A stretch of 64,000 nt of DNA from Candidatus Poribacteria bacterium (GCA_028821605.1 JAPPFM010000016.1:5785-69784), one strand, 5' to 3'. Numbered from the stretch's first letter, positions 2,372 through 39,583 are shown. Translations and numbers: made by a program. The notes: generated by a model from the letters alone, not told the origin.

Positions 2372-3115
2372 TCAGCGACTCTTGAGTTGGCTCCATGTCG
2401 TTGTGAGCAACTCGTTCGGGGAAACGGGCAAGACAGCCTCTACACCTTTCATCAACGCCGCGATCTCTGCCTCTGTGATGCCACGGTCAAAGAAGACAAT
2501 CTCGTCCAATCTACCGATGAACTTCTCACCGCCAAAGGTACCGAACAGTAGTTCGCCTGCCTGATCTACATCACCGCCCTGTTTAACGGCAGCCTCAAGT
2601 GTGCCGTCCACATAGAGTTTCATCTCACTGCCATCGTAGAGTCCAACGATGTGATACCACTTTTCAGGCTCAACGACGGTTTTTCCCCAGACACCGCCGG
2701 TAAACCCACCGCCTGACCAGATACCGAAGACATAACCCCCCGGCACCCTTTCAGTTGCGGATTGAACTTCCAATAGATAAGAACCGTTCCGTCGAATAGC
2801 GGTATCGGAAACGCCTTTATTCATGTAGACCCAAGTTGCGATGGTCATCTGGTCTTTGAAATTGAGACTATCAGAAGGTTCAACCCTCACAACATGGGGC
2901 GGTTCAAATTCCAACGCGCCGCCGAACTTACCCTCTGCCCATTTCGCGCCGCTAACCTCGCCATCGTTTCCGTTGCCCGACGTATCCACTGCGACACCAC
3001 CTTTACCCTCATCAAAAAGCCAGATACCCGCTGCGTCATCCAACAACTCCGCTGAAAGAGAGTTTATTACTACACACAATCCACCGATGATAACAAACCA
3101 AAATATCTGTTTCAT
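2372..3115 (-). CDS. Secreted LamG/concanavalin-like domain protein with C-terminal ..LLTTTWSQLKSR tail
   Basis: N-terminal signal peptide. LamG_3-like core (DTSGNGNDGEVSGAKWAEGKFGGALEF..LYVDG..). Shares the conserved C-terminal tail motif. Confidence 0.6.
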   Translation of the reverse strand: MKQIFWFVIIGGLCVVINSLSAELLDDAAGIWLFDEGKGGVAVDTSGNGNDGEVSGAKWAEGKFGGALEFEPPHVVRVEPSDSLNFKDQMTIATWVYMNKGVSDTAIRRNGSYLLEVQSATERVPGGYVFGIWSGGGFTGGVWGKTVVEPEKWYHIVGLYDGSEMKLYVDGTLEAAVKQGGDVDQAGELLFGTFGGEKFIGRLDEIVFFDRGITEAEIAALMKGVEAVLPVSPNELLTTTWSQLKSR

Positions 3116-3327
3116 GTTTTCTTCCCCCTTGATAAGATACGAGTTTAGCAGAAAGGGGAAAATGTGTCAAGGAACTGGATGGGCCTCATCTGCTCCATTT
3201 TTTGTAGAGGATTTGTGTTAGAAGGTTTGTGATAGGAAAGTTGTTGGAAAGTCAGGGGTGTTCTGATAAAATACCTCCTTACAATGTTTTGACTTACCGA
3301 GCAAGGTTTAGCGGATTTTTCCTTTAT

Positions 3328-3762
3328 CTATTTCGTGCGTATGAGAATTAATATCACAATAACAACGCAAAGGATCAGGACCCAGAACATAGGCACAGAG
3401 CCTTGGAAAAAGTCCATGATCGTGTTCTTTTTCGTCATCTTGAGCGGGACGTAGTGATCTCCGCCATTAACGATTGTAACAGGTTTGCCAAGCCGATCGC
3501 CGTATCCGTCTTTGTAAATACTGATGAGATAGCGACCTGCAGGGATACCTGATTTCTCGTAATCACCATTCGCATCTGTTTTTGTTGTAAATTCCGTACC
3601 GTCTTGGGCAACAATTACGACTTCAACGCCCTCAATCGGGTTCTGTCTTTCAGTTGTATCGACAATCTGTCCGCGGACGGTGCCTCCATCTTGTGCACAG
3701 GCAATCCCAACAGATATAATCGTATAGGCGACGACCATTAGTGCTAAACGTAGACGAGTCAT
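3328..3762 (-). CDS. Carboxypeptidase-regulatory-like (CarbopepD_reg) domain protein with C-terminal TM helix
   Basis: Signal peptide, the motif VRGQIVDTTERQNPIEGVEVV...DANGDYEKSGIPAGRY, and a hydrophobic C-terminus. Confidence 0.5.
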   Translation of the reverse strand: MTRLRLALMVVAYTIISVGIACAQDGGTVRGQIVDTTERQNPIEGVEVVIVAQDGTEFTTKTDANGDYEKSGIPAGRYLISIYKDGYGDRLGKPVTIVNGGDHYVPLKMTKKNTIMDFFQGSVPMFWVLILCVVIVILILIRTK

Positions 3763-3799
3763 TATTATATTTCTCCTTGGGTTGGAAAGTTAGGAGGTG

Positions 3800-4648
3800 C
3801 TATTTCCGAGCAGCCGCCAACAGACGCTGAAGTGTTCCTCCTAAAATCTCTGCCTTGTCTGTTTCTGGAATAAATGTACAGTGCGTTCGGAACGCTTCAA
3901 GTGCGTGTTGATATGTCATAAAGTTACGAACAACCGGATAGTCGGACCCCCAGCAGAGACGACCGGGACCGAAATGTTCGTAGAGAGCGCGTACAATCCA
4001 GTGTGTGTCCGATTGCGGATAATCCCACGAGACCTGTGACACATAAGCAAATCCCGACATCTTGATGTGAATATTCGGTAGATCTGCCGAGGCAAGCACC
4101 TGCTTTAGTTGCGGGTAGGGGTGTTCTTCACCGGCTCGCGCGCCACCCATGTGATGACACAGAAATGGTACCGAAGGGAACTGTGCGGCGAGTTTTCGGA
4201 GTGGCTCGTGCTGGTGACTTCCCATGGCAATGCTGGTGATGAGTCCCAATTCGGCGGTTGTTTGAAAGAAGCGTTGTCCGTCGTCCGAAAAGAACCAGCT
4301 GCCGTCGTCATCGCCTTTGAGATAGTGCGTGTAACCTTTGAGGTTGTATGTCTCTGCGGCCTCTTTTAGACGGTCGGCTGCGCCCGGTGTGTGATATGTT
4401 TCTGTCCATGAGCAATCTACATCGGCGAATTGAATCAGTCGTTCAGGGTAACGCTTTACACACGCTGCGACGTAATCGTTGTTTTCTGGATTTCTGTCAA
4501 TGCGTGCACAGATAAGTACTGCTTGGTCAACGTTGTGCAGATCCATTTCGTGGAGGAGTTGTTCGACTTTGCCACGACTCTCATCATCGGGGACAGGGGG
4601 TTGATAGGGCCACCGGGGCCAGGCGTGTGTGTGGGAATCAATTATCAT
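3800..4648 (-). CDS. Amidohydrolase-2 family metal-dependent hydrolase
   Basis: MIIDSHTHAWPRW.. at the N-terminus and HxH..D metal-ligand pattern of PF04909-like TIM-barrel hydrolases. Confidence 0.7.
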   Translation of the reverse strand: MIIDSHTHAWPRWPYQPPVPDDESRGKVEQLLHEMDLHNVDQAVLICARIDRNPENNDYVAACVKRYPERLIQFADVDCSWTETYHTPGAADRLKEAAETYNLKGYTHYLKGDDDGSWFFSDDGQRFFQTTAELGLITSIAMGSHQHEPLRKLAAQFPSVPFLCHHMGGARAGEEHPYPQLKQVLASADLPNIHIKMSGFAYVSQVSWDYPQSDTHWIVRALYEHFGPGRLCWGSDYPVVRNFMTYQHALEAFRTHCTFIPETDKAEILGGTLQRLLAAARK

Positions 4649-4698
4649 TTTTTTCTCCTGAGAGAGTTTCTTCTTTGCTGGTGAGGTTTCTAACCCGC

Positions 4699-6228: not shown

Positions 6229-6230
6229 TT

Positions 6231-7557: not shown

Positions 7558-8238
7558 ATGAGAGTAACTATCACAGTGCCGAAGTTAGCGGCGTTAAGTC
7601 TCGTTGTGCTTTTCGGTTTGGCACTTTCGCTACCGACGTATGCGGGTACCCAATTGTGGGACTTTGAAGAAAAGCACGATGACTGGAAAGTTGCCAACGG
7701 AAATTGGGAAATTGCAAAGGGAGTCTATCACGTTGACAAGGGTGGACAAGCGGAACACTCTCTCGTTGGTGAAGAGGACTGGGATGATTACACCATTGAG
7801 GCGAAGGTTCGATTGGATAATCACCATTGGGCGGGTATTGTTTTTCGCGCCGAAAGCGAGATGGAGTACTACGTCTACTATCTCAATGTCCCAAATAACA
7901 AAACGGAACTCTGGCGACACAAAGATGGTGCCTGGAATGCCCGCGACAATGTCGCGCAAATCCCAGCTGTTGAGAAGGTCCAAATAAAGAACGGCGAATG
8001 GATTGATATGAAGGTTGTCGTTGAGGGTAGTGAATTTCAGATTTATCTGAACGGTAAACTTCAGGGTGAACATAAAGATGATGTCTACAAAACCGGCCAA
8101 GTCGGTGTGTGGGCATGGGAAACCGAGGCGAGTTTTGATGATTTCACCGTTAGCGGTGATAATATTAAGGACACCCTTGCCGTTGACCCGAATCGCAAGT
8201 TAGCAACAACATGGGGTCGTCTCAAACGGGTTTACTAA
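7558..8238 (+). CDS. Secreted DUF1080 (3-keto-disaccharide hydrolase/LamG-like jelly roll) protein with C-terminal ..LATTWGRLKRVY tail
   Basis: Signal peptide. Motifs: WKVANGNWEI..G.Y..HSLVG..DWDDYTIEAKVRLD..WAGIVFRA. Paralogous to 8385..9053. Confidence 0.65.
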   Translation: MRVTITVPKLAALSLVVLFGLALSLPTYAGTQLWDFEEKHDDWKVANGNWEIAKGVYHVDKGGQAEHSLVGEEDWDDYTIEAKVRLDNHHWAGIVFRAESEMEYYVYYLNVPNNKTELWRHKDGAWNARDNVAQIPAVEKVQIKNGEWIDMKVVVEGSEFQIYLNGKLQGEHKDDVYKTGQVGVWAWETEASFDDFTVSGDNIKDTLAVDPNRKLATTWGRLKRVY

Positions 8239-8384
8239 TTTGGCATAAGGTTTAGCCTCAGAAGTTTTCTACGTGAAAACCACGTTGAAGACTTTTGAGG
8301 CAACTTTAATTTGCGTCTATAGTCACGCTTGAGTATTTTCAAAGCGTGACTCCAGACAAGATTAAATTAAAAAGGAGTGAAAAT

Positions 8385-9053
8385 GTGAAGTATTTGTTTT
8401 CAACTGTTGTGAGTTGTTGTTTTCTCGTACTTATGACCTCTTTCGCTTTCGCAGGCGAACAGACTTGGTCGTTTGAATCGGATGCAGACGATTGGAAAGT
8501 CGCTAACGGTGCTTGGAGTGTTGAGGACGGCATTTATAAACTCGCTAGGGGCGGTAGAGCCGAGCACTCTCTTGTTGGTGATGCTGAGTGGGACGATTAC
8601 ACCGTTGAGGCAAAGGTTCGACTTGATGAAGGGAACTGGGCAGGTGTTGTCTTTCGTGCTCAAAGCGAGATGGAATACTATGTCTACTATCTTAATGTTC
8701 CGAATAACAAAACGGAGCTTTGGCGACATAAAACGGGAGCGTGGGATGCGCGTGACAAGATTGGTGAACTCGCTGGAAAGAACATCACTGTTGCGAATGA
8801 CGAGTGGTTTGACATGCGAATCGTCGTGGAAGGCACTTCAATGAAACTCTGGATTAACGGTGAAGAACAGGGTGAACTTAAGGATGAAACGGGTGCTGGA
8901 TATCCTGCTGGGCAAGCCGGTGTCTGGGCATGGGAAACCGCCGCGAGTTTTGATGATGTCAAAGTCTCTGGAGATGCTATCATTAACCTTACCCCGGTGG
9001 AACCAATGGATAAATTGGCTACCACGTGGAGTCGCCTCAAACAGCACTTTTAA
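8385..9053 (+). CDS. Secreted DUF1080-like protein, paralog of 7558..8238, C-terminal ..LATTWSRLKQHF tail
   Basis: Likely GTG start at 8385 after AGGAG at 8373 (the ORF track starts at 8346). Signal peptide, same domain motifs as its neighbour. Confidence 0.6.
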   Translation: MKYLFSTVVSCCFLVLMTSFAFAGEQTWSFESDADDWKVANGAWSVEDGIYKLARGGRAEHSLVGDAEWDDYTVEAKVRLDEGNWAGVVFRAQSEMEYYVYYLNVPNNKTELWRHKTGAWDARDKIGELAGKNITVANDEWFDMRIVVEGTSMKLWINGEEQGELKDETGAGYPAGQAGVWAWETAASFDDVKVSGDAIINLTPVEPMDKLATTWSRLKQHF

Positions 9054-9097: not shown

Positions 9098-10933
9098 GTG
9101 ATACGGAAACTTTCCTATTACACAGTTGCATGGGTGGCACTCGTCGGGTGCTACCTTACCCTCTCGCTGGTCCCGAACGCGTTCTGTCAAGAAACAGGTG
9201 ATGCGGACCCCACAGCGCAGATTCGTGCTTACAAAGCGCAGTTGACTGCCGATGGTACTCAGACCGAAGTTCGCTTGAAACTTGCGAAGGTGTACCTTCA
9301 AATTGAGGCATACACTGAAGCAATTACTGAATATCAACAGATAATAGCGATTGTCGAAGCGAACGGAGTTCTGGGAACCACAACACCTCCACTCGATTCG
9401 GATATTCCGACAGTTTACTACGGTTTGGGATTGGCATATACAGGGCTTGAAAGGTTTGAGGATGCCATAACCGCTTATGAACGCTCGATTGCGTATCAAC
9501 CTGACTGGGCATATAGCCACGCGGCTTTGGCGAGTGCTTACGCGAACATGCACCGTTACGCTGAAGCACTTGATGCTTACAAAGTGGCGATTGGGTTGAA
9601 CCCGAACGATGAAATGATTCATCACCAACTCGGGAATGTCTATAGCAAGCGTGGTGAACATGCAGCAGCTATTCGACATCAACAGCAGGCAATTGCTATC
9701 GCACCAGAATTTGCAGAGGCACACTATCAGTTAGGACTTCTCTACACACAAAAAAAACAGTGGACTGACGCAATCGCATCGTATCAAACTGCGTATGCGC
9801 ACGATGACGCGTTGGTTGAAGTGCTCTATAATCTCGCACAAGCATATCTCCGGGTTGGAGATACATCTGCTGCACGCCAGCAGATGGCACTCTTTGAGAA
9901 ACGAAAAGCAGTAATTACGCCTCTTCACCAACTACGCGGCGCACTACAGCGAACACAAGACACAAACGAACGCGCACAAATTCTCGCCAACATTGGTAGA
10001 ATCTACCTCAAAGATGGACACTACGAGAAAGCAGTATGGGAGTATCAGAAAGCACTGGGAATTGATCCGCAACTGGCCTCTGCTTATAACGGGCTTGGTC
10101 TTGCCTATACGATGCTTGAGAGGTATTCGGAAGCCGTTATTGCGCAACGGAAAGCGTTAGAACTTCAACCAGATCTCGCGAAGGCATACGCAGGACTCGG
10201 TTTGACATATTTCAGGCAGAATCTGTTGGAATCCGCATTGGAACATTACCGACACGCTGTCGCTCTGGACCCTGAATTTCTGGAAGCGCGTCTGAAGATT
10301 GGGATAATTCTGTTGAATCAGAAGCACTATGCGGAAGCGATTGATACGTATCTGGCAATTCTTGACCTTAAACCGGACGATCCTGAGGTCTATTATAATT
10401 TGGGATTGTGTTACGCACATCAAGCGAAAGCCAGTGCTGATGAATCGTCTGTTGAAGGTTTGACTTTTTCAGCATTGACGACACTTGAAAAAGCGGTTGC
10501 ACTTTCGGTGTCTGATGCTGGTGATTTAAGTGAGACGGAACAGCCTCCGTTTTTAGCAGAGACCTATTATCTTATCGGTGAACTTCAGGCGAGTAAAGCG
10601 GATTTTAATGCAGCAGAGAAGGCTTACTTAGCATCCGGTTTACCAAAGGCATATCATGCGCTTGCCCAGTTAATCGCGAAGTTTGTGAGGAAAAATAGGG
10701 ACAACAGCAAACAAGGTGTGAATTTAGAAACCGCTCGGCGTTATGCACAAGAGGCTGTCCGATTGGATCCGAACGTGGCGAGTTATTATAATACACTCGC
10801 GCTTATTGATTTTCAGCGCGGTGATTATCCGCAAGCAGAGAAGGCGATCCGAAAAGCGTTGGAACTTGAACCCAAAAATCCGAACTACCAACAAGGGCTG
10901 AAACAGATTTCTGGTAAATTAGCTGCTGAGTAA
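9098..10933 (+). CDS. TPR repeat protein (secreted/periplasmic)
   Basis: Signal peptide followed by about 12 TPR-like 34-aa repeats (..AYxxLGxxY..A..). Confidence 0.8.
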   Translation: MIRKLSYYTVAWVALVGCYLTLSLVPNAFCQETGDADPTAQIRAYKAQLTADGTQTEVRLKLAKVYLQIEAYTEAITEYQQIIAIVEANGVLGTTTPPLDSDIPTVYYGLGLAYTGLERFEDAITAYERSIAYQPDWAYSHAALASAYANMHRYAEALDAYKVAIGLNPNDEMIHHQLGNVYSKRGEHAAAIRHQQQAIAIAPEFAEAHYQLGLLYTQKKQWTDAIASYQTAYAHDDALVEVLYNLAQAYLRVGDTSAARQQMALFEKRKAVITPLHQLRGALQRTQDTNERAQILANIGRIYLKDGHYEKAVWEYQKALGIDPQLASAYNGLGLAYTMLERYSEAVIAQRKALELQPDLAKAYAGLGLTYFRQNLLESALEHYRHAVALDPEFLEARLKIGIILLNQKHYAEAIDTYLAILDLKPDDPEVYYNLGLCYAHQAKASADESSVEGLTFSALTTLEKAVALSVSDAGDLSETEQPPFLAETYYLIGELQASKADFNAAEKAYLASGLPKAYHALAQLIAKFVRKNRDNSKQGVNLETARRYAQEAVRLDPNVASYYNTLALIDFQRGDYPQAEKAIRKALELEPKNPNYQQGLKQISGKLAAE

Positions 10934-17443: not shown

Positions 17444-18223
17444 CTAATAGTCTTTCCGTTTGAGTGCTCCCCAAGTTACTGCGATTTTCCCTGCGGGTTC
17501 CACCGCAACGCCTAAGGCAGTCAAACCGTTATTCATAACGTCAGCAATATCGTTATCCGTCAAAGGTGCGTGGAAGAGAGCTACTTCGTCCATTGCCCCT
17601 GTGAACCAATTACCAGTGCCGTCCCAAACACCGCATCCACCGATATTCACGTTGAAATCAGATCTGCCATGGTTGGGCCAGTTGCCATTTACCGTTGTAG
17701 CATCTCCATCAATGTAAACCTTCGTGAATTGTCGGGTCGCAACAGCAGCGACGTGGTGCCACTCACCGGGTGGATGTTCGTATGCATTGTTATTACTACC
17801 AGCTGTGGGAGTCCATAGGGCAACGGTAGTGGGATTAATAAAACCGAATTCCGGTGAATCGTTCTGTCCTATCAACCCGATTCGGTTGGAGGTAATATTC
17901 CCTGGCTTTACCCAAGCGACGACTGTGAATTCACGTACACCGTTGAGAAGTTTTTGATTTGTATTCACACAGTTGCCTGTGCCATCAAATCCTAAGGCAC
18001 CGCCGAATCGTCCATCGACCCAAATAGGTGCGTTGACAATCGTCCCGTGGTTATTGTTTCCTGAAGAGTCCATCGCTGTGGTTCCTCCCCCATCATCAAA
18101 CAGCCAAATACCGACAACACTACTCTGGTCAATTGCGGCACTACTGGTGTTCACAGCAACGAGACTAATCGCCATCAGCCCTAAACTAAACAGGATAAAT
18201 GTTAAAGTGTTAAATTTCATCAA
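17444..18223 (-). CDS. Secreted LamG/concanavalin-like protein with C-terminal ..AVTWGALKRKDY tail
   Basis: Signal peptide, and a LamG_3-like core (DSSGNNNHGTIVNAPIWVDGRFGGALGF). Confidence 0.55.
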   Translation of the reverse strand: MMKFNTLTFILFSLGLMAISLVAVNTSSAAIDQSSVVGIWLFDDGGGTTAMDSSGNNNHGTIVNAPIWVDGRFGGALGFDGTGNCVNTNQKLLNGVREFTVVAWVKPGNITSNRIGLIGQNDSPEFGFINPTTVALWTPTAGSNNNAYEHPPGEWHHVAAVATRQFTKVYIDGDATTVNGNWPNHGRSDFNVNIGGCGVWDGTGNWFTGAMDEVALFHAPLTDNDIADVMNNGLTALGVAVEPAGKIAVTWGALKRKDY

Positions 18224-19700: not shown

Positions 19701-20429
19701 CTACGATGAGTTTTCTTTTAAGCGAGCGAGTTCCTCGCGAAGGTGTGCGAGTTCAGTTTCAGCGCGTTCGGCGCGTTCTCTATCGCGTTCGGCGCGTTCT
19801 CTATCGCGTTTGGCGCGTGAGTTTGCTGCCTCCTCCGGTGTCTGTAACCACTTCCGTGTTACTGGATCATAAATCCCGAATCCATCCGCTAATAAGTGAA
19901 AATCTAAGCCCAGGGTCTCAGAAGAAATTCCACCATTAGCGTTAGGGGCAATCTCAATATACTCACCATCAACCAACCGAAAGCCCATCAACGGTGCAGG
20001 CAAATAGCGTCTATCAACATCACAGAGGAAGTATTCTGAAATTCCAAGCCTCGCGTAGAGTTCCATCTTATTGTTTAAGTCGTTTTGAACGGTACCTTTA
20101 CTTGAAAACTCAACGACAAAGTCAGGGGGTTTTCCTTCTTCCCATATCTTGTAGGTGCGGCGGGGTTTTTTACCCACTCCAAAAGAGATGAGTAGATCGG
20201 GAGAGACAGCTTTTGGGGGTCTGGTATCCTCGTAATACATCATGAGATTGCCGGAAACATAAGCATCGGGTGTGTCTGCGTAGTAGCTTCTGAAGATTAA
20301 CCGCATACGGAGTATTGCTTCTATGTGATGATCGGTTTCAGCCATAGGTTTCCCATCTGATTCAGGATAGAGGTCCGCTGTTTCGGTTGGGGCGTAAGAG
20401 GTTCGGAGCGCGTTTAGGGAAGTTTCCAT
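19701..20429 (-). CDS. Uma2 family (DUF820) putative endonuclease with C-terminal charged coiled-coil repeat
   Basis: Uma2 core (..PDFVVEFSS..), then an RDRERAERDRERAERAE tail encoded by a tandem 21-nt repeat at 19764-19820. Confidence 0.65.
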   Translation of the reverse strand: METSLNALRTSYAPTETADLYPESDGKPMAETDHHIEAILRMRLIFRSYYADTPDAYVSGNLMMYYEDTRPPKAVSPDLLISFGVGKKPRRTYKIWEEGKPPDFVVEFSSKGTVQNDLNNKMELYARLGISEYFLCDVDRRYLPAPLMGFRLVDGEYIEIAPNANGGISSETLGLDFHLLADGFGIYDPVTRKWLQTPEEAANSRAKRDRERAERDRERAERAETELAHLREELARLKENSS

Positions 20430-24370: not shown

Positions 24371-24871
24371 ATGGAAACCGTTGAAAAATCCACTAACGGT
24401 ACTGAATTTGTAAAACAGTTTGAAGACTATCTCAAAAGTTGTGGACTCCGCTTGACCCAAAAACGATTAGATGTCCTAAACCAAGTCTTCGACTATCCGG
24501 GTCATTTTCAAACGGAAGACCTCTTGGTTCAGATGCGCCGCAACGGTTACCTTGTGTCGCGCCCGACGATCTATCGGACATTGCCGCTGCTGGTGAGAAG
24601 TGGGTTACTGACGGAATTTATTGATGCACAGAAGAACACCCGCTACGAGAGTATTCATTCGCTCCGAGAACATGCGCATCTCATCTGTCTACGGTGTAAT
24701 CAGATTGTTGAGTTTAAAGAGCCGGGGATTGATGCCTTACAAAAGGCGGTGTGTGAAGCACACGACTTTAAAGCCGTGCGCTTCCGTAATGAGATCATCG
24801 GTTACTGCGCCGAGTGCCAAGCAGAATTAGAACCAAAAACACCTGATGAAGCGGACGCAACTACTGCTTAA
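24371..24871 (+). CDS. Fur family transcriptional regulator
   Basis: ..LRLTQKRLDVLNQVF.., ..RPTIYRTL.., HxH..CxxC metal sites (HAHLICLRCNQ...CAEC). Confidence 0.8.
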   Translation: METVEKSTNGTEFVKQFEDYLKSCGLRLTQKRLDVLNQVFDYPGHFQTEDLLVQMRRNGYLVSRPTIYRTLPLLVRSGLLTEFIDAQKNTRYESIHSLREHAHLICLRCNQIVEFKEPGIDALQKAVCEAHDFKAVRFRNEIIGYCAECQAELEPKTPDEADATTA

Positions 24872-25553
24872 GCCGTGCCCATGTTGTGGTGAGCAGCCCT
24901 ACCGGATTAACGTCCGTAAGCCCACTGGAAGCATTTTCGTAGTCTTCGTTTGTAGGTTCATAATCTAAGTCGCTAGACCAGCAGATAACGTCTAACTGGA
25001 CCTGGTTCGAGCTCTGCCGTGTCCATATCATCATGACGTTTTCACCATCTTGTAATTTGTTGACCGTGCCACCGTCACTTCCGAAATCACCCGTCCGCAA
25101 CCATGTCCATTCAGGGGCGTTCTCTTCCATGATGATGTGATCAGGACGAACAAAAGCGGGTTTGTCCGTTGGAATTTCATCACCATCATCGCCCAAAACC
25201 CACAACCAATCCGAATGGTTGCTCGGATTAATGACGCGCACGATAAACCGCCAGTCCCCTGCTTTTCCATCAGCGGCACTGATGTCGAACCTGTAGAGTA
25301 TCCAACCTTGTCCACCGGCGTTGGTGATGATATCCCCAAACGCACCTTCCGTGGGATCAAGTGCCCCTTCACCCTTGCCTAATTTATAGACATCCGCGGA
25401 GTCCCTTTCATCAAAGGCTTCTGCCTCAAACCATATCTGTTCGCCACTCCCGTATTTAGAGACTCTAAATTCTTCTACGGCAAAGCCCGTAAACGGTTGT
25501 ATCAACAGGAAACAGAAAACGAAGCCGAAGGTTAACTGACATCTTTGAAGCAT
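24861..25553 (-). CDS. Secreted hypothetical protein with C-terminal ..LLTTTWARLKQ tail (paralog of 25596..26294)
   Basis: Signal peptide, no recognisable domain, shared tail motif. Confidence 0.5.
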   Translation of the reverse strand: MLQRCQLTFGFVFCFLLIQPFTGFAVEEFRVSKYGSGEQIWFEAEAFDERDSADVYKLGKGEGALDPTEGAFGDIITNAGGQGWILYRFDISAADGKAGDWRFIVRVINPSNHSDWLWVLGDDGDEIPTDKPAFVRPDHIIMEENAPEWTWLRTGDFGSDGGTVNKLQDGENVMMIWTRQSSNQVQLDVICWSSDLDYEPTNEDYENASSGLTDVNPVGLLTTTWARLKQ

Positions 25554-25595: not shown

Positions 25596-26294
25596 TTACT
25601 GCTTAAGCCGACTCCATGTCGTGGTTAGCAACCCATCTGGATGCACCGGCAAAGTTTTTTCCTCCGCTTTTTCGTAGTCTTCATCCGTAGGTTGATACTC
25701 TAAGTCACTGGACCAGCAAAAAACGTCGTACTGGACCTGGAGCGAACTTTGTCGTGTCCATATCATCATGACGTTTTCACCGTCTTGTAATTCGTTAATC
25801 GTCCCAGCATCCTGTCCAAAATCTCCTGTCTTCTTCCATGTCCATACGGGGACATTTTCTTCAAAAATGATATGATTGGGGCGGACGAAGGCAGGTTCCG
25901 CATCTGGAATCTTATCGCCATCGTCGCCCAAAACCCATAGCCAATCCGAATGGTTGCTTGGATTAATAACACGCCCGATAAACCGCCATTCTCCGGCTTT
26001 CCCGCCAGCACGACTGATGTCGAACCTGTAAAGTATCCAACCCTTTTTCCCAGCACCGGCGTTGGTAATGATATCCCCAAACGCACCGTCGGCAGGGTCT
26101 ACAGCCTTTTCGCCTTTACCCAATTTATAAACATCCTCGGAATCCCTCTCATCAAAGGCTTCTGCCTCAAACCAAATTTGTTCACCTTTTCCGTTTTCCG
26201 AGACTTTGAATTCTTCCACGGCAAAGCCTGTAAACGGTTGGACCAGTAGAAGACCAAGGGCTAAACTGAGCGTTAATTGAACTCTCTGAAACAT
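25596..26294 (-). CDS. Secreted hypothetical protein with C-terminal ..LLTTTWSRLKQ tail
   Basis: ATG start at 26294 (GGAG RBS) is preferred over the ORF-track start at 26417. About 60% identical to its neighbour. Confidence 0.5.
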   Translation of the reverse strand: MFQRVQLTLSLALGLLLVQPFTGFAVEEFKVSENGKGEQIWFEAEAFDERDSEDVYKLGKGEKAVDPADGAFGDIITNAGAGKKGWILYRFDISRAGGKAGEWRFIGRVINPSNHSDWLWVLGDDGDKIPDAEPAFVRPNHIIFEENVPVWTWKKTGDFGQDAGTINELQDGENVMMIWTRQSSLQVQYDVFCWSSDLEYQPTDEDYEKAEEKTLPVHPDGLLTTTWSRLKQ

Positions 26295-29436: not shown

Positions 29437-31059
29437 ATGGAAACTTTGAATACCTATAAAGAATCAACAACTAACAAAATCACGCTCAATCTTGATGGCA
29501 ACGCCGAAGTGTCTGTGAAAGGCTTCATCGCTCCAATTGAGAACACCCTGTCCAATTTTCATGTCGAGTGGGATGCATTGGCACATCTACGCGTCACTGA
29601 ACCAGAAAAACGCTATCCAGTATCTGTTTTTCGAGCATTTCTTCCGAACAAGCCTGTTTCGGTAGGCGACCTTTGGCAAATTGAAGAAGCCAGCGTCCTT
29701 GAATTGCTCCAGCAACTTCATCCCGATCCGACTTTGGATATGCACATTAATTCTGGCGATTCCCGTGGATTGTGGGCATGTCTGCGCGCTTACAACGATC
29801 AGTTTGCCGAGATCGTTTTTCGGATTCATGCGGAGTTCAAGTTAGAAGGAGGTTGGTTTACACCGTCGCAGTTTGCGGGCACTCTCGTTATTGATAGGAT
29901 TGAACAGCGTGTTGTATTTTTTGAGATGTACGTCCCAGAAAGTACTGTGAATTTTGATCTCAACTGGACGAGTGCTGATGCTGGCTTCTGCTCGCAGATG
30001 GAACTCCGTGCTGGGACACAGGATATTATTCGAGAGATTGAATTCACAGAAGCCATCACCTATGAGGCAGCGAAGCACTCCTTAATACTGTGTTTCTACG
30101 AATCGGCGCGGATTAACTGGGTGCCACCGAGTCAGGTGTTAGAGACAGCACAAGCACAACAGAAACCGATTCATGCTATATCCATAGATGGACCCTTAGC
30201 AGATGAGTCGTGCTGAGGGAGTGGAAAAGGTTTGAGAGCAGTTGCTCTCTCTGATGAACAGAATATAGCGTTCTTGAACGAAAATTTCATCAACACTTGG
30301 GTATCGAATGTTGAATTAAGAAGGACACCGAGGAAGCGTGCCTTCATGACACGGCGGTTTCAAGATGAATCCAAGACATTTGACAGAAGTTATCCTTTGG
30401 CACAGGCTATCATGAAGGGGTGGAGCGAGCATTCACCCGTGGATTGTTTGATTCTCTCGCCGGAACTTGAGTTGATGGGCAGTATGCCTGTTAACGATTT
30501 CTTTGATACCGAATTGGAAGGACTTGGGGATGAGGAGGCGTATCTTTTCTTTCTTGAAGCATCGTTAACCGGGAAAAAACCCGGATTGGATGGTAGCACT
30601 TTGAAACCTCAGCCAACAACTGATTGGAATGCTTTTTTCAATTCAGGGACTGTTGTGAACAGTTTGAAAGTTGCGCTCACCCATGAGTGTCCTGAACAAG
30701 AGGTATTGAACATTTTTCGGACACCAGAATCTGGCTATCAAGATTATACCGTCACTGAGGTTGATACAACGGCATTTGAAAATGGCGGCACGCTCATTGT
30801 TGATATATCAGTAGGAGGTGCTGAACCTGCAGGGTCATTTGATTTATACAGTGGGGATAGCGAATTACCCACTGAAGGTGTGCCTCAGGACGCACTCGGC
30901 TCGGCATGGGGTGTTCCGCCTTGTAAAACGGGAATTATTAGGTATCCGTTTGAGCGAGGTGGGTTTTTTAAGTTGGGTGCTACTGGTGATTGGTTCAGTG
31001 AGAAGGGGAGTATCAACGCTTTTCTCGCTAAAGTTTCCGTGAAATCTGAAACGGAATAG
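29437..31059 (+). CDS. Candidate Cys-Sec selenoprotein, paralog 1: ORFs 29437..30216 and 30232..31059 joined by an in-frame UGA at 30214 (..DGPLADESC-U-GSGKGLRAVALSDEQ..)
   Basis: Both ORFs are in the same frame and separated by 15 nt. The downstream ORF has no ATG (only a TTG). The Cys-UGA sits where the thioredoxin-fold CxxC would be (beta-strand PIHAISIDG before, helix ..NIAFLNENFINTWV.., cis-Pro-like SPVDCLILSP after). A conserved hairpin lies 17 nt 3' of the UGA. The C-terminal domain is shared with the sensor of the 41739 sigma fusion. Confidence 0.5.
30234..30249 (+). promoter_or_regulatory. Candidate bSECIS hairpin GAGAGC-AGUU-GCUCUC
   Basis: Perfect 6-bp stem 17 nt after the UGA, conserved in all three paralogs. 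Confidence 0.4.
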
Positions 31060-31080: not shown

Positions 31081-32622
31081 GTGATAAACCTTTGTAATGT
31101 ACTAAATAGTTCGACACGTCTACAGGTGCATGCACATTGGGATCCTATTGCGGATTCTACGTTTAATATGCACAAAGACTCACCAGAACTCACTGAGTTA
31201 TTTGACCTGTCTCCAAATCAGCCTGTCAAGGAATACGGGATAGATGTTTTCAATGCGTTCCTTCCACCATCAACTGTAGCGGTAGGAGATGTTTGGGAAC
31301 TTGATCCGAACAGGCTTATTTCCTTCTTTCATCAGTTTCATCCCGGTGCGACCACAGCCGTCTATCACGGGGCGGAAGGTGCGTTCGCATGTTTGCGTGC
31401 GTTTTCATCGGATTACGCTGAGGTCGCTTTCCGAATTCATGCTGATTTCACACTGGAGAGCGCTGCCTATAAGGCGTGGCAAGACGAAAACTCGTCGGAG
31501 GACGATGATAATAAATCCCGTTTTGTCCCTTCTCATTTTGTTGGACGGTTGTTAATCAATCTGAAAGAAGGGACAGTTCGAGCGTTTTCATTTTATCTTC
31601 CTCCACGCAATAGTAACGTTATCATCAGTGCCTTTGGTGGTATTGACATGGTATTTGTGCCGCGCATGGAACTCCTCACTACAGATGAAACCGATCAGGA
31701 CGAAATCGCGTGGGACGCTGCTATCACAACGGAAGAGGCACACCGCACCTTGGAACTGAAGTTCTACAAATTCGCGGAGGTTGATTGGCTCCCGATGGAT
31801 AAGGCGGTCGCACAGGCGAAAGCAACCAATCGTCCGATCCATGCAATCTCGGTCTGGGGGTGCTTAGACAATGAATCGTGCTGAGCGAACGGCAAGTATT
31901 TGAGGGCGGGTCCGCTCTCCGATCCAGAGGTTATAAGAACGCTCAACGAAAAGTTTGTCAATACGTGGGTGCTCCTCCGAGAATTGCCGGAACTGATAAG
32001 TGGTGCAAAAGGGGAGGCAGTTAGTCTCGTTGCTAAAAAAATGAAACACCACTATACGGACTCTGTAGACATCCTTGCACTGACTCCCGATGCGGAAGTT
32101 ATCATGCATCAACCGGAGATGGCACTGCCTTACAAGAATCAGGCACAAGCGTACCTATCAGTGTTACAGCATACTGTGAGTACGTTTGAAGGGAGACGTA
32201 TTCGTGTTGGACAAGGGTCAAAATTAGATGGAAATCCAATCAGTTTGGGGACGGAGTTAATGGAGGTCTTGCAGGTTTTTCGCGCTTCTGATACCGATAT
32301 GCCGAATTACACGGTCGTTGAAATTGATACGACATCGTTTGAACGCGGCGGGATACTTCACATTGAGATACAAGTCGGAACAGGTGAGGCAGCAGGGACG
32401 TTTGAGTTGTTTGATGCCGATGCCGAAATTCCTACAGAAGGTGATACAGATGAAGCACTGGAAGGTGCATGGGACGTTCCGCCCGGTGGTATAGGGCATA
32501 TCTTCCACGATTTTAGACGGGGTCGGCGTTTTAAGTTGGTCGCTACGGGTTCGGAGAATCAGGCAAACTGCACCAATGCTTTTCTGGCGCGTGTTTCTGT
32601 CGTCCCACCGTTTGAAAAATAG
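31081..32622 (+). CDS. Candidate Cys-Sec selenoprotein, paralog 2: ORFs 31081..31884 and 31900..32622 joined by an in-frame UGA at 31882 (..VWGCLDNESC-U-ANGKYLRAGPLSDPE..)
   Basis: Same architecture as paralog 1: same frame, a 15-nt gap, TTG-only downstream start, a hairpin 17 nt after the UGA. Confidence 0.5.
31902..31919 (+). promoter_or_regulatory. Candidate bSECIS hairpin GAGGGCG-GGUC-CGCUCUC
   Basis: 7-bp stem with one G-U pair and a GGUC loop, 17 nt after the UGA. Confidence 0.4.
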
Positions 32623-32900: not shown

Positions 32901-33716
32901 ATGTTACGGGCGTTTATTGCTGCTTTTTCGAGTGTCGTTATGTTATTGTTGGTGGCTTCTGCCAACGCCGGTTTGGATGAAGACCTTGTTTTTTATTTGA
33001 CGTTTGATAATGTTAAAAATCAGACGATTATTGATGAATCTGGGAACGGTCTTGATGCAGAAATACTTGAGCATGCCGAGATTGTCAAGGGTAAATATGG
33101 AGATGCAATCCGTCTTACAGATCAAGGGGGGAATTGTGTTAATATTCCTGCTCAGGAGAAATTGAAAGTTGTAGGTGAAATAACAATGACGCTATGGGTT
33201 TATTATCAAAAACCATGGGTAGGTAGTAGAACACATTGGTTTGATAAAGACTGTCATACGGTTGGTTGGGGTGCTTCTTATGGTATTATGAGTGCTGATA
33301 TTGGTAACGGACCGGAGATCTGGCTGTTTTTGGGATCCCTGGATGAACGAAGAAATACAAATCGACAGCAACTCGTAATTCCACACAAAATGGATGGAAA
33401 AAAATGGCATCACGTTGCTGGAAGCTACGATGGGAAAACCATGAAAATCTATGTAGATGGTGAAATCATAGGGGAAGAAGAGAAAAAATTCAACTTCGTT
33501 GGTGATAATGACTCAGATTTTCGGATCGGGTGCGCAAAAGAGAGAGCACATGTTACATTCGTCAACGGTTCTATTGACGAAGCTGCAGTATGGCAACGAG
33601 CATTGAGCGATAATGAAATCAAACAAGCCATGACAGGAAACTTTCTCGCTGTTTCACTGGGTGATAAGGTCGCCACGACTTGGGCGGATATGAAAAAGAG
33701 GGCAATAGCCCGTTAG
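32901..33716 (+). CDS. Secreted LamG/concanavalin-like protein with C-terminal ..VATTWADMKKRAIAR tail
   Basis: ATG at 32901 after GGGGGA. Signal peptide, LamG_3-like motifs (..DESGNGLDAEI.., ..KIYVDGE..). Confidence 0.6.
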   Translation: MLRAFIAAFSSVVMLLLVASANAGLDEDLVFYLTFDNVKNQTIIDESGNGLDAEILEHAEIVKGKYGDAIRLTDQGGNCVNIPAQEKLKVVGEITMTLWVYYQKPWVGSRTHWFDKDCHTVGWGASYGIMSADIGNGPEIWLFLGSLDERRNTNRQQLVIPHKMDGKKWHHVAGSYDGKTMKIYVDGEIIGEEEKKFNFVGDNDSDFRIGCAKERAHVTFVNGSIDEAAVWQRALSDNEIKQAMTGNFLAVSLGDKVATTWADMKKRAIAR

Positions 33717-35817: not shown

Positions 35818-36843
35818 ATGACGCGCAAGTCTGTTTCTCTTTATTCAATGGATCGGGGTTATACCAAGTTTACGATATTATGTTATGCTGTCAGCGTGTT
35901 ATTTGTGTTCAGTAGCAGTGCTTCTGTGTGGGCAAAAATTCCGGAAACAGCAAAAATAGCGTTTACGTCAACCAGAGATGGAAGGACCGAAATCTATCTC
36001 ATGAACCCTGATGGCACCGTGCCGGTGAATGTAAGCCAGCATGCAGGAGCAGAGGATTACAATCCTGTCTGGTCGCCAGACGGAAAGCAAATTCTGTTCA
36101 TCTCAGATCGGGAAAAACTCTTTGATTTGTATCTTATGGATGCAGATGGCACAAATGTCCGGAAGGTATTTAAAACCGAGGCACTCAGAAGAGATCCGGC
36201 GTGGTCTCCTGATGGCAAACGAATTACCTACGCACAAGGAGAAGAACCCAACCAAGAAATCTATATTGCTGCAATAGATGGTACATTCGTTGAAAAACTG
36301 ACAGACGGGTTCATGCCAAATTGGTCGCCCGATGGGAACGAGATAGCCTTTGTGGTGGGAGGTATCAAACACACTCCACTGGGTATCTTCGACTTACAGA
36401 CAAGTACCCAAAGGATACTCCTCTCAAAGGAGGTACCGTGGATAGTTAATCCAAACTGGTCACCACGCGGAGACAAAATCGCCTTTTCAAAAATAGACGG
36501 ACGCTTCGATCCAAATGGTTTTCTTTGGTGGGAGAGGTCAAACATTTACGTTGCAAATCGTGATGGAACAGGACTTCATCAGATTACCAAGGATGAAGAA
36601 TCAATTTGTCAGAGTCCCACTTGGTCTCCACACGGCAGCGAACTCATTTACACGGATGTAGTCAGACAACCGGGGAAAAACATTTCTGTGCAATTGTTCA
36701 GAACAGATTTGAGTGGTGCTAACCCAACACAATTGACGCATAAAGGAAATAATTCTCGCGCGGATTGGTTTGACCCAACGTTAAGCGTTTCACCTTCGGT
36801 GCAATTGTTAAGGACGATATGGGGAAAAATCAAAGTGGATTAA
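35818..36843 (+). CDS. TolB-like PD40 beta-propeller protein, paralog 1, C-terminal ..VQLLRTIWGKIKVD tail
   Basis: Signal peptide, repeated ..SPDGKxIxF.SDR..DLYLMDADG.. PD40 units. Confidence 0.7.
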   Translation: MTRKSVSLYSMDRGYTKFTILCYAVSVLFVFSSSASVWAKIPETAKIAFTSTRDGRTEIYLMNPDGTVPVNVSQHAGAEDYNPVWSPDGKQILFISDREKLFDLYLMDADGTNVRKVFKTEALRRDPAWSPDGKRITYAQGEEPNQEIYIAAIDGTFVEKLTDGFMPNWSPDGNEIAFVVGGIKHTPLGIFDLQTSTQRILLSKEVPWIVNPNWSPRGDKIAFSKIDGRFDPNGFLWWERSNIYVANRDGTGLHQITKDEESICQSPTWSPHGSELIYTDVVRQPGKNISVQLFRTDLSGANPTQLTHKGNNSRADWFDPTLSVSPSVQLLRTIWGKIKVD

Positions 36844-36989
36844 GTTAACCGTGAACTGTAAGGAGCATTAAATAAACATGAAAAGGAAGGGTTGATTTTC
36901 TCAATGTTAACAATATGGGTCTTGGGGTTAAGCTTAACGCTTCAAAGCGCTGCTGATAAGATAAACATCGAAAACATATCTAATTTTTT

Positions 36990-37155: not shown

Positions 37156-38202
37156 ATGCAGTGCAAAGCTGTTTTTCCTTGTTCAGGAGATCAAGGCTAT
37201 GTCAAGTTAGCAATGTTAAGTTATACGATTAGTGTTCTACTTGTGTTCAGTGGCAGTGCTATCGTATGGGCGGAAGGCCCAGCGACAGCGAAAATCGCGT
37301 TCATGTCAAAGCGGGACGGCAATCCTGAAATCTATATAATGAACTCTGACGGGAGTGACCAAGTCAATTTGACCCAGCATCCCGCAGCCGATTATCATCC
37401 AGCCTGGTCGCCAAACGGAAAACACATACTTTTCAGTTCTGATCGAGATGGAATCTTCGATTTGTATCTTATGGATGCCGATGGGACAAATGTGCGAAAG
37501 GTGTTTGCAAGCAGCAAATATAGATGGGAGCCTGCTTGGTCGCCCGACGGTAAACGGATTGCCTATGCACAGGGAGACCCAGGAAAAGCAAAACTACAAT
37601 TTGGGATGCGATTTGTTCCTTACGCTGACCTCACGCTCTGCGTCGCGACCCTAAATGGAGGCTCCGTTGAGAAATTGACAGATGGATTCATGCCAAGTTG
37701 GTCTCCTGATGGGCGCGAGATAGCTTTTGTGGTGGGTGGACGCGAAAGCACACCATTGGGTATTTTTGATCTACAGAGGCGCACCCGAAAGATACTCCTT
37801 TTAAAAGAGATGCCGTGGATATTTGATCCGAAGTGGTCTCCACAAGGTGACAAAATCACTTTTGCGAAACTCGAGGGAGCAGAGTTTGATGGACAGGGTT
37901 TTCTTGTGTCTAGGAAGGGGACGATCTATACTGTGGATAGCAATGGCAAAGGACTTCATCAGATTACCGATGAACATTCCTCCTATAACCCCACTTGGTC
38001 TCCAGATGGCAACGAACTCATTTACAACGCTCGGGCGGGCGTTTTTTCACAACTCTTCAAAATGGATCTGGACGGCGGTAATCCAACGCAACTGACACAC
38101 GACGGCAGTAATTCGAGTCCAGATTGGTTTGACCCAACATTAAGCGTTTCACCTTCGGTACAATTATCAACGACGATGTGGGGAGAAATCAAAGCGGATT
38201 AA
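37156..38202 (+). CDS. TolB-like PD40 beta-propeller protein, paralog 2, C-terminal ..VQLSTTMWGEIKAD tail
   Basis: Same architecture as 35818. Confidence 0.7.
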   Translation: MQCKAVFPCSGDQGYVKLAMLSYTISVLLVFSGSAIVWAEGPATAKIAFMSKRDGNPEIYIMNSDGSDQVNLTQHPAADYHPAWSPNGKHILFSSDRDGIFDLYLMDADGTNVRKVFASSKYRWEPAWSPDGKRIAYAQGDPGKAKLQFGMRFVPYADLTLCVATLNGGSVEKLTDGFMPSWSPDGREIAFVVGGRESTPLGIFDLQRRTRKILLLKEMPWIFDPKWSPQGDKITFAKLEGAEFDGQGFLVSRKGTIYTVDSNGKGLHQITDEHSSYNPTWSPDGNELIYNARAGVFSQLFKMDLDGGNPTQLTHDGSNSSPDWFDPTLSVSPSVQLSTTMWGEIKAD

Positions 38203-38349
38203 GTTAACCGTGAACTGTAAGGAGCATTAAATAAACATGAAAAGGAATTGGTTGATTTTCTCAATGTTAGCAATATGGGTCTTGGGGTTAAGCTTAACGC
38301 TTCAAAGTGCTGCTGATAAGATAAACATTGAAAACACATCTAATTTTTT

Positions 38350-38396
38350 GAAAAATTAGGCAACCGTTTTGTCAGTCACCCGCGTCACTATATATC
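38350..38396 (+). promoter_or_regulatory. Shared ECF-type promoter
   Basis: Identical core, tandemly duplicated unit. Confidence 0.5.
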
Positions 38397-38515
38397 AAAA
38401 TAGCATCTACACGAACAAACCCCTTTGTAGAGAGAATGTTTACGTAGTGCATTTCTTATAATTCAGTGTAAGATAAAATCGAAGATCAAAACCTATTCAT
38501 AATGGAGAATGTCTT

Positions 38516-39583
38516 ATGAAGCGCAAAGTTGTTTTTCCTTGTTCAAGAGATAAAGGTTATGTTAAGTTTGCAGTGTTAAGTTATATGATCAGTGCTCTAC
38601 TTGTGTTCAGTAGCAGTACTTCTGTGTGGGCAAAAGCCCCGGCGACAGCGAAAATTGTGTTTATGTCAAAGCGAGATGGCAACGCCGAAATCTATATCAT
38701 GAATCCTGATGGGAGTGAGCAGGTGAATTTGAGCCAGCACCCTGCAGCAGATTATGATCCGGCTTGGTCACCGAACGGAAAACATATCCTATTCAGTTCT
38801 GATCGAGACGGTGGCGTTTTCGATTTATACCTTATGGATGCAGACGGCAGAAATGTCCAGAAGGTGTTTGAAAACAGCGCATATAGAAGAAATCCAAATT
38901 GGTCGCCTGATGGTAAACAGATTGTCTATGCGCAGGGAGATCCACAAAAGGCAAAACTACACTTTGGATTACGACTCATCCCACTAGCCGATCTCACGCT
39001 TTATGTTGCAACACTAAAAGGGGACTCTGTTGAGAAATTAACGGATGGGTTTATGCCGAGTTGGGTGATTGATGGCAGCGAAATAGCCTTTGTGGTGGGT
39101 GGCATCGAACATACGCCGCTGGGTATTTTCGACTTGCAGACGCATATCCAAAAGATGCTTCTCTTGAAGGAGATGCCTTGGATAATTCATCCGAGCTGGT
39201 CCCCACAGGGGGACAAAATCGCCTTCACGGAAATCAATAGGGCAGGGTTTGATGGGCAAGAATTTCTTTCGTTTGAGGACTCAGCACTCTACATAACGAA
39301 TAACGATGGAATAGGACTTCATCAGATAACTAAAGATGAAGAAGACTTCCCTTCTGAGCCCACTTGGTCTCCACACGGCGATGAACTCATTTACACAGCT
39401 TTAGTCTTGGAACCGGGTAAAGGTGGGGCACAACTTTTCAAAACGGACCTGAACGGTGGTAATCCAACGCAACTGACACACGACGGTAGTAACTCGAGTC
39501 CGGATTGGTTTGACCCAACATTAAGCGTTTCACCTTCGGTACAATTATCAACGATGATGTGGGGAGAAATCAAAGCAGATTAA
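38516..39583 (+). CDS. TolB-like PD40 beta-propeller protein, paralog 3, C-terminal ..VQLSTMMWGEIKAD tail
   Basis: Same architecture. Immediately followed by selenoprotein paralog 3, probably in one operon. Confidence 0.7.
   Translation: MKRKVVFPCSRDKGYVKFAVLSYMISALLVFSSSTSVWAKAPATAKIVFMSKRDGNAEIYIMNPDGSEQVNLSQHPAADYDPAWSPNGKHILFSSDRDGGVFDLYLMDADGRNVQKVFENSAYRRNPNWSPDGKQIVYAQGDPQKAKLHFGLRLIPLADLTLYVATLKGDSVEKLTDGFMPSWVIDGSEIAFVVGGIEHTPLGIFDLQTHIQKMLLLKEMPWIIHPSWSPQGDKIAFTEINRAGFDGQEFLSFEDSALYITNNDGIGLHQITKDEEDFPSEPTWSPHGDELIYTALVLEPGKGGAQLFKTDLNGGNPTQLTHDGSNSSPDWFDPTLSVSPSVQLSTMMWGEIKAD

Follow-up and report, generated by a model that had tools for sequence, protein, structure and literature searches.

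A conserved C-terminal peptide on exported proteins of Candidatus Poribacteria as a candidate envelope docking or sorting tag

The window considered here is a stretch of 64,000 nucleotides from a Candidatus Poribacteria bacterium (GCA_028821605.1, JAPPFM010000016.1, positions 5785-69784), in which ten genes encode proteins ending in the same short peptide, referred to below as the tail. An original prediction had described this tail as a sorting or anchoring tag shared by at least ten unrelated secreted proteins, and all ten copies are present at the coordinates it gave. The ten carriers belong to four domain families and six lineages, so that the claim of different folds holds and extends to more Pfam families beyond the window, whereas that of ten unrelated proteins fails within the window and is recovered across the Poribacteria, where at least 28 carrier families are unlinked by BLAST. 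Three of the carriers are LamG (Laminin_G_3) proteins, encoded at 2372-3115 (minus strand, 247 amino acids [aa], tail VSPNELLTTTWSQLKSR with its stop codon at 2372-2425), 17444-18223 (minus strand, 259 aa, tail VEPAGKIAVTWGALKRKDY with stop at 17444-17503), and 32901-33716 (plus strand, 271 aa, the most divergent tail, VSLGDKVATTWADMKKRAIAR, with stop at 33651-33716). The two paralogous DUF1080 (3keto-disac_hyd) genes follow each other on the plus strand. The first (7558-8238, 226 aa, tail VDPNRKLATTWGRLKRVY with stop at 8182-8238) codes for a 3-keto-disaccharide-hydrolase-like, CBM66-like protein identical to a protein from a metagenome-assembled genome (MAG) that NCBI names only 'DUF1080 domain-containing protein [Candidatus Poribacteria bacterium]', and the second lies at 8385-9053 (start possibly GTG at 8346, tail VEPMDKLATTWSRLKQHF with stop at 8997-9053). 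Two further paralogues, both on the minus strand, have no Pfam domain (24861-25553, 230 aa, tail VNPVGLLTTTWARLKQ with stop at 24861-24911; 25596-26294, 232 aa, tail VHPDGLLTTTWSRLKQ with stop at 25596-25646). The last three carriers are paralogous PD40, or TolB-like beta-propeller, proteins encoded on the plus strand at 35818-36843 (341 aa, tail VSPSVQLLRTIWGKIKVD with stop at 36787-36843), 37156-38202 (348 aa, tail VSPSVQLSTTMWGEIKAD with stop at 38146-38202), and 38516-39583 (355 aa, tail VSPSVQLSTMMWGEIKAD with stop at 39527-39583). All ten N-termini have the look of a Sec-type signal peptide, with an n-region, a hydrophobic core and an AxA-like site, as had been noticed from the start.

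Two observations concern the surroundings of these genes. The 70 nucleotides past the stop codons of two PD40 genes are near-identical (36844-36913 versus 38203-38272), so that the PD40 triplet appears to stem from tandem duplication of gene plus spacer. Genes for Uma2-family putative restriction endonucleases are located at 1703-2347, directly adjoining the tail gene at 2372-3115, and at 19701-20429.

A seven-residue core pattern, [TVIM][TIM]W[GSA]x[LIMV]K, applied to the six-frame translation of the window, matches ten times, always 1-6 residues ahead of the stop codon of an open reading frame (ORF) of 222-355 aa. Internal copies, which the original prediction had named as evidence against a sorting signal, number zero in the window, and 200 shuffles of the window yield a mean of 0.1 core matches and of 0.045 C-terminal ones. 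A profile hidden Markov model (HMM) of the tail gives the ten copies 33-48 bits and the next best segment 4 bits, a gap from which it follows that the window holds exactly ten tails and no weaker copies.

For other genomes, a degenerate DNA pattern encoding V-x-P-x3-L-x-T-T-W-[GA]-x-[LIMF]-K, with no stop codon demanded, was run against one genome per species from 185,579 bacterial and archaeal species, and matched at least 120 loci. Among the 120 matches listed, to which all counts of tail loci given below refer, 114 are labelled Poribacteria, five come from unlabelled 'uncultured bacterium' MAGs, and one, which is not C-terminal, comes from an Oscillospiraceae MAG; a hand count of isolate names puts the number of assemblies at about 82. 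Over these 120 loci (0.92 Mb), a relaxed regular expression finds 175 matches, 172 of them at 1-8 residues from the stop codon and one at 12, the remaining two being a 55-aa segment of non-coding appearance and the Oscillospiraceae match. Since the DNA pattern demanded no stop, this count constitutes an independent test of C-terminal restriction and, with ten out of ten in the window, bears out the claim that the tail is strictly C-terminal. In a control set of 2.9 million viral contigs the DNA pattern matched twice, neither time at a genuine gene end. When 1.84 billion cluster representatives (50% identity) were searched with a profile, at least 366 clusters matched at E <= 0.001, and in the best 150 of these 366 the match almost always reaches the end of the protein, the exceptions being a partly similar repeat protein and gene calls that run into the next gene. 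A protein search with the tail alignment, for which the minimum query was 40 aa, returned short fragments under 80 aa, and therefore shows conservation rather than diversity. The best 120 homologues of the DUF1080 protein at 7558-8238 are from Poribacteria wherever an organism is named. As far as these scans reach, and among the matches listed, the tail is confined to the Poribacteria and a few unlabelled MAGs. It is not limited to sponge samples, because a TARA Oceans contig (open-ocean data) bears it; other tail-bearing MAGs have isolate names that suggest a sponge origin. An unlabelled MAG with 64% GC, versus about 48% in Poribacteria loci, carries at least five tail genes in 8 kb, with LamG-like and PD40 carriers (CAYYPK010000004.1, 176001-184000), and a GC-rich relative or sister lineage of the Poribacteria may thus also have the tag.

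Anchored on its tryptophan, the tail reads [LTF]-[APS]-V-[ED]-P-x-[GD]-K-L-[TAS]-T-T-W-[GA]-x-[LI]-K-x(1-6)-stop, a total of 17-20 residues (the tail peptide written out: AVEPNGKLTTTWGNLKSRR). In the window tails, an invariant valine is at position -10 and a proline at -8 from the tryptophan; these positions lie further upstream than the original prediction had seen, and extend the motif to about 16 residues. Across the tail loci, valine reaches 96% and proline 91%, both dictated by the search pattern in most cases, and the position between them is glutamate in 43% and aspartate in 25%. Positions free of the search pattern are conserved as well, among them lysine at -5 (90%), glutamate or aspartate at -9, glycine or aspartate at -6, and leucine, threonine or phenylalanine at -12. 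The conserved lysine near the end is followed by 1-6 residues (mode 3) that are rich in arginine, lysine and serine and mostly basic or polar; in the tail loci its distance to the stop is 1-8 residues, again with a mode of 3. Past the tryptophan, the net charge averages +1.7 in 173 tails, and cysteine is nearly missing (one of the 173). The best 15-residue mean Kyte-Doolittle hydropathy within the last 30 aa of these tails reaches 1.47 at most, with a median of 0.27, and none of the 173 contains a transmembrane segment by this measure. At the conserved positions, codon use varies freely between non-paralogous window copies, all synonymous codons of valine, proline, lysine, leucine, threonine and glycine are used in the 173 tails of other genomes, and the DNA 3' of the stop codons in the window is unrelated, save between recent tandem paralogues. 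The variation at synonymous sites indicates that selection on the tail acts at the protein level.

The carriers are small exported proteins. Complete carriers in the tail loci have a median length of 260 aa (10-90% range 217-284 aa), and 151 of these 157 (96%) possess an N-terminal hydrophobic leader according to a heuristic that is not SignalP, so that the original claim of signal peptides on the carriers stands beyond the window too. Once stripped of leader and tail, they form 28 clusters unlinked by BLAST, with LamG proteins making up about half of the carriers. The Pfam families detected on them comprise Laminin_G_3, 3keto-disac_hyd, PD40, F5_F8_type_C, CBM_4_9, CBM9_1, NPCBM, DUF3108_like, DUF3179, SNase and, weakly, PA14, and several clusters are without any Pfam family. 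Judged from these families, the tag is chiefly a feature of stand-alone glycan-binding modules, plus a few enzymes.

Several results place the tail beyond the carrier domain. Pfam domains of the window carriers stop 20-30 residues short of the stop codon, and the closest PDB structure to the DUF1080 carrier, the CBM66 module of a levanase, aligns with residues 41-197 only, out of 226. A single-sequence AlphaFold model of the protein encoded at 7558-8238 was uninformative (pLDDT 47), and the prediction was redone with a 41-sequence alignment; the new model presents a beta-sandwich with pLDDT above 90 and residues 207-226 at 26-34. Despite this low pLDDT, few columns of the alignment are better conserved than those of residues 207-226. 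In a pair of FGE-sulfatase-like paralogues, the tailed protein is 46% identical to its tail-less relative up to the end of the latter, the tail being an add-on beyond that point. The tail thus probably lies outside the folded domain and is predicted to be unstructured. Taken together, it is a real, strongly selected and strictly C-terminal motif of 17-20 residues, carried by Sec-exported proteins of many folds.

The original statement that the tail matches no known tag is upheld by all searches made. Pfam and NCBIfam, the latter with all its -CTERM and type IX secretion system (T9SS) models, return nothing over the tail, whether queried with the whole ten proteins (NCBIfam at E <= 1) or with isolated tails (E = 10). 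Membership of a longer known C-terminal domain, such as the T9SS C-terminal domain (CTD) or PEP-CTERM, had been raised at the outset as an alternative, and no such match was obtained over the tail. A PDB profile search yielded chance matches only, and a description of the tail was not found in the literature on Poribacteria sorting signals, C-terminal motifs and exosortase. One of the closest known counterparts is the PEP-CTERM/exosortase system (TIGR02595 type), likewise a lineage-restricted C-terminal tag on unrelated signal-peptide proteins, with a positive end and with an acidic-proline motif to which V-[ED]-P in the tail, short of the first proline of P-E-P, may correspond. The tail differs from it in having 13 mostly polar residues, K-L-T-T-T-W-G-x-L-K, in place of a transmembrane helix, in a T-T-W-G-x-[LI]-K block that is without counterpart there, and in leaving the model unmatched; moreover, no exosortase gene was seen in the window or in the 0.92 Mb of tail loci, the range of that scan. 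The T9SS CTD (TIGR04183/TIGR04131) is also a C-terminal signal on Sec-exported proteins of diderms, often glycan-binding or hydrolytic, and it too finishes in a hydrophobic residue, a lysine and a few more residues, but it is a folded beta-sandwich of 70-100 aa, as opposed to an unstructured peptide of 17-20 aa, and its models do not match. Kamke et al. (2014, PMC3909097) reported T9SS-type C-terminal domains (TIGR04183/FlgD_ig matches) on some Poribacteria proteins, and no T9SS structural (Por) genes in Poribacteria single-cell genomes; those domains are a different feature from the tail. LPXTG/sortase, GlyGly-CTERM/rhombosortase and MYXO-CTERM tags similarly mark the C-termini of several unrelated exported proteins in particular lineages, but consist of three parts that include a transmembrane helix and a basic end, and the peptide described here has neither an LPXTG or GG motif nor a helix.

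Systems in which a C-terminal element is bound by a protein partner provide another set of comparisons. Encapsulin cargo-loading peptides are short, conserved, linear C-terminal peptides that follow a flexible linker on unrelated cargo and are bound by a protein, with a flavour, L-T-V-G-S-L-K, that recalls L-T-T-T-W-G-x-L-K in the tail. Encapsulin cargo, however, is cytoplasmic, has no signal peptide and is encoded beside the shell gene, whereas tail carriers have a signal-like leader, and no encapsulin shell-like family is present among the families scanned next to tail genes, where the recurrent neighbours are FG-GAP/UnbV_ASPIC, TPR, FGE-sulfatase, PhyH and DUF6785 proteins. Should the tail be bound by a secreted TPR protein encoded nearby, the arrangement would be akin to PTS1/PEX5 and EEVD/Hop, in which one TPR receptor serves many clients through a C-terminal peptide address; those ligands are eukaryotic, cytosolic and 3-5 residues long, held by their free carboxylate, whereas the conserved block of the tail is internal, with 1-6 variable residues after it. 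The dockerin-cohesin pair of the cellulosome shares with the tail a C-terminal docking element on varied carbohydrate-active or carbohydrate-binding modules, and with it a possible assembly of these modules on a surface scaffold; a dockerin is a folded, duplicated, calcium-binding domain of about 70 aa, for which the tail is too short, and the carriers have no Pfam dockerin match, nor was a cohesin-like repeat scaffold identified. The beta-signal of outer-membrane proteins was also considered and rejected: phenylalanine, tyrosine or tryptophan is the final residue in only 26 of 173 tails, and the carriers are soluble beta-sandwich or propeller proteins. The tail is hence most likely an undescribed tag, without the architecture of known C-terminal sorting tags.

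As a sorting or anchoring tag, which is what the original prediction proposed, the tail has its C-terminal position, its exported carriers, its lineage specificity and its protein-level selection in favour; the part of the proposal that does not carry over is the likeness to LPXTG, PEP-CTERM and GlyGly-CTERM, whose shared architecture of motif, transmembrane helix and basic cluster is missing. Because of this, the tail, if a sorting signal, must work in another way. We regard it as an evenly balanced prospect that the tail is a C-terminal docking or sorting peptide without a transmembrane segment, read at the envelope by a dedicated protein partner after export. According to this model, the N-terminal signal peptide, as read from the sequence, would take the carrier over the inner membrane, the carrier domain would fold while the tail remained flexible, in agreement with the AlphaFold model, and a dedicated envelope protein would bind the tail as a peptide ligand, leading to retention, to assembly on a common scaffold or to hand-on to the surface. 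It is the position-specific conservation of the tail across unrelated carriers that points to such a binding protein. The outcome would be the display of interchangeable lectin-like modules, and of a few enzymes, through one shared docking peptide.

Alternative explanations range from artefact to other modes of attachment. Seven of the ten window tail genes are in three tandem paralogue groups, which might suggest chance, recent paralogy, gene conversion or a DNA or RNA element at the 3' end of genes. Such an origin borders on the impossible given ten matches where 0.1 are expected, synonymous sites that vary freely with all codons in use, post-stop DNA that is unrelated except in recent paralogues, and a tail that, among the matches listed, occurs in about 82 assemblies and on 28 carrier families without BLAST links; it stands refuted by codon usage and by the spread across genomes. 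The tail might also be the last part of some larger C-terminal domain already described, such as the T9SS CTD, PEP-CTERM or PPC, an idea to which the TIGR04183/FlgD_ig matches on some Poribacteria proteins (PMC3909097) and the faintly PEP-like V-E-P lend some colour. We hold this to be highly improbable, since the last 25-30 residues of all ten proteins, and isolated tails even at E = 10, are without Pfam or NCBIfam cover, Pfam domains finish 20-30 residues before the stop, and the conserved block is about 16 residues long, predicted to be unstructured and free of any transmembrane segment.

Among explanations that accept the tail as a functional peptide, the main rival to docking is a cleaved transpeptidation signal, a possibility we consider unlikely. 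A sortase-like periplasmic or outer-membrane enzyme, comparable to sortase, exosortase or PorU of the T9SS, would read T-T-W-G-x-[LI]-K and cut near V-[ED]-P, and the new C-terminus would, with the same doubtful standing, be joined covalently to lipopolysaccharide (LPS), another glycan or peptidoglycan. The motif consists of a conserved V-[ED]-P block and a conserved K-L-x-T-T-W-G-x-[LI]-K block ahead of a positive end, which resembles the layout of PEP-CTERM, with its cleavage site and recognition/retention part, and an unknown route of envelope attachment has already been suspected in view of T9SS-type domains without T9SS structural genes (PMC3909097). This reading has to contend with the lack of a transmembrane helix that could keep the substrate close to an enzyme in the membrane (hydropathy median 0.27, maximum 1.47), with the lack of a recurrent peptidase or sortase-like gene beside tail genes in 0.92 Mb of tail loci, and with NCBIfam sorting-signal models that stay unmatched even at E = 10. 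A receptor-independent anchor, in which the tryptophan and the lysine- and arginine-rich end bind anionic lipid, LPS or polysaccharide in the manner of the amphipathic anchors of PBP5/6 and MinD, is improbable. The invariant tryptophan, the hydrophobic residues at -4 and +3 (i, i+4, i+7 spacing), the flanking lysines and net positive end, and a low-confidence AlphaFold helix at residues 211-218 are all compatible with it, but the hydrophobic residues are three only, hydrophobic moments are low (0.8-1.1), and identity is fixed at nearly all positions from -5 to +4 (T-T-W-G, lysine -5 at 90%), as well as at valine -10 and proline -8, whereas lipid-binding helices conserve a physico-chemical pattern only. 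Very improbable, in our assessment, is a role other than localisation, either as a shared oligomerisation element or as a degron or quality-control handle for a periplasmic tail-specific protease or PDZ protein. Such a role would suit a conserved peptide that sits, flexible, at the C-terminus of many exported proteins, and lectin-like carriers often gain avidity by multimerisation; PDZ and Tsp-type reading, by contrast, uses the last 3-5 residues and the carboxylate, and the last 1-6 residues of the tail are variable, while it is difficult to see why a degron would be kept on hundreds of protein clusters in at least 80 species-level genomes.

Returning to the docking peptide, the best candidates for its partner come from the neighbourhood of tail genes. 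In the window, a gene on the plus strand at 9098-10933 encodes a secreted TPR protein of 611 aa, a candidate tail receptor whose 'c2' TPR family recurs beside tail genes in other Poribacteria. It starts 44 bp past the tail gene at 8385-9053, on the same strand, and so comes after two tail genes (DUF1080-DUF1080-TPR), an order found again in another genome, with a DUF1080 orthologue of 55% identity. When 842 ORFs from the tail loci were clustered, two non-carrier families stood out: the secreted TPR protein and a secreted CRTAC1-like propeller protein, which NCBI calls 'CRTAC1 family protein' and which combines five FG-GAP_3 repeats with a UnbV_ASPIC domain. Signal peptides are found on both. 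One or both genes occur in 35 of 119 tail loci; the TPR gene lies beside tail genes in 23 loci and 15 lineages, plus the window, and the CRTAC1-like gene in 11 lineages (lineages defined at 60% identity), next to at least ten carrier families and in at least 15 gene contexts. A tail gene is the immediate neighbour of a TPR or CRTAC1-like gene in 22 loci, and the two genes are co-oriented in 21 of 24 adjacent pairs, at distances of 3-232 bp. CRTAC1-like genes account for 24 of the 842 ORFs (2.9%), a share that is 0.12-0.27% among the genes of the larger single-cell genomes of Poribacteria (PMC3909097, Table S7), which gives an enrichment of roughly ten-fold that counts orthologous loci in many species and takes its background from incomplete single-cell genomes.

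This qualification of the enrichment is one of several points that weigh against docking, and against these partners in particular. About 70% of the tail loci listed have no TPR or CRTAC1-like gene in their 8-kb block, nor do eight of the ten window tail genes have one nearby, and one CRTAC1-like locus in the Poribacteria is free of tail genes for 10 kb around. The CRTAC1-like and TPR genes are also adjacent in 39 of 80 metagenome loci, mostly from soil and with 56-63% GC, in bacteria without the tail. Sorting or anchoring machinery, be it sortase-like, exosortase-like or an outer-membrane factor, was not identified, and the 1-6 variable residues that trail the lysine put the free carboxylate out of fixed register, unlike in EEVD or PTS1. 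The DNA pattern is itself Poribacteria-shaped, and the at least 120 matches listed with it may miss divergent relatives in other phyla. A docking role in these uncultured bacteria, which we place at even chances, is a prediction from sequence.

Genes near the CRTAC1-like gene in the 80 metagenome loci (765 kb, mostly soil) bear neither the tail nor another shared C-terminal motif, save one PEP-CTERM protein and one Poribacteria-like contig; this contig, of 46% GC, carries the only tail, directly beside a CRTAC1-like and TPR pair. The near absence of tails from these loci means that the tail is not a general companion of the pair. A reciprocal look from the CRTAC1 side, at the orthologues of one lineage, found one locus with a tail gene two genes away, besides the locus mentioned above that has none. 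No Rosetta-stone fusions of TPR or CRTAC1-like proteins with carrier families were present in the fetched loci; a TPR plus Laminin_G_3 protein is listed by Kamke et al. (PMC3909097, Table S8). FGE-sulfatase and sulfatase genes likewise recur in the neighbourhoods of tail genes. With a pair that is widespread without the tail, a CRTAC1-like locus without a tail gene, and most tail genes without the pair, adjacency may mean only that all belong to a shared glycan-related regulon. The proposal that the neighbouring secreted TPR/CRTAC1-like pair is the binding partner is a doubtful one. A display system in which dozens of Sec-exported lectin-like modules per genome have their tails caught by secreted TPR/CRTAC1-like receptor pairs encoded in the same operons is put forward tentatively. 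No function for the pair was found in the literature searched. One gene arrangement that recurs in soil has a response-regulator-like gene next to the pair. Some tail loci (L039, L103 and L084) contain, beside CRTAC1-like, TPR or FGE-sulfatase genes, a gene for a polytopic membrane protein of about 636-729 aa with DUF6785 and DUF6784, a possible membrane component of that gene neighbourhood.

For LPXTG, PEP-CTERM, GlyGly-CTERM and the T9SS CTD alike, the tag opened the way to a dedicated envelope machine, and the tail ranks among the peptide features most strongly conserved in an entire uncultured phylum. Since the great majority of its carriers are carbohydrate-binding modules that stand alone, the tag probably determines the way in which Poribacteria offer glycan-binding proteins to the sponge matrix or to particles in the sea. 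It provides a simple sequence handle for listing the exported "surface-ome" of the phylum, and a peptide-receptor hypothesis that can be addressed with recombinant proteins alone, with no need for cultivation. If the display system is true, it would amount to a modular, exchangeable glycan-binding coat, reinventing in a bacterial envelope the logic of cohesin-dockerin or PTS1-PEX5, and the widespread bacterial CRTAC1-TPR pair would gain its first functional handle.

Other genes of the window are of separate interest. Three paralogous frames are each broken by a single in-frame TGA (29437-31059, with TGA at 30214-30216; 31081-32622, at 31882-31884; and 39607-41610, at 40438-40440). The flanks of the TGA are conserved on both sides in all three (...DESC*GSGK.LRA..., the asterisk marking the TGA), neither half has a Pfam family, and the frames are candidates for coding for selenocysteine proteins with a Cys-Sec pair. 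About 19 nucleotides past each TGA there is a small hairpin, which shows compensatory changes but folds with an energy no better than that of shuffled sequences. A C-terminal module of about 130 aa ('...VLNIFRTPxSGYQDYTVxEIDxTAF...FLAKxSV') without a Pfam match, found in 30232-31059, 31900-32622, 40456-41610 and 41739-43067, ends the three TGA-containing proteins and one fusion protein of extracytoplasmic function (ECF) sigma and anti-sigma type (41739-43067). The latter is one of five paralogues that have an entire ECF sigma factor, regions 2 and 4 included, at their start, the others being encoded at 44113-47139, 49330-52113, 52516-56340 and 58375-61425; they continue with a transmembrane segment and large extracytoplasmic BNR/Sortilin-like or WD40 repeat domains, a composition that implies the fusion of sigma and anti-sigma-like parts in one chain. 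Two of the ECF sigma paralogues are followed by paralogous genes for LVIVD-repeat, lipoprotein-like proteins, at 56661-57989 and 61490-62839.

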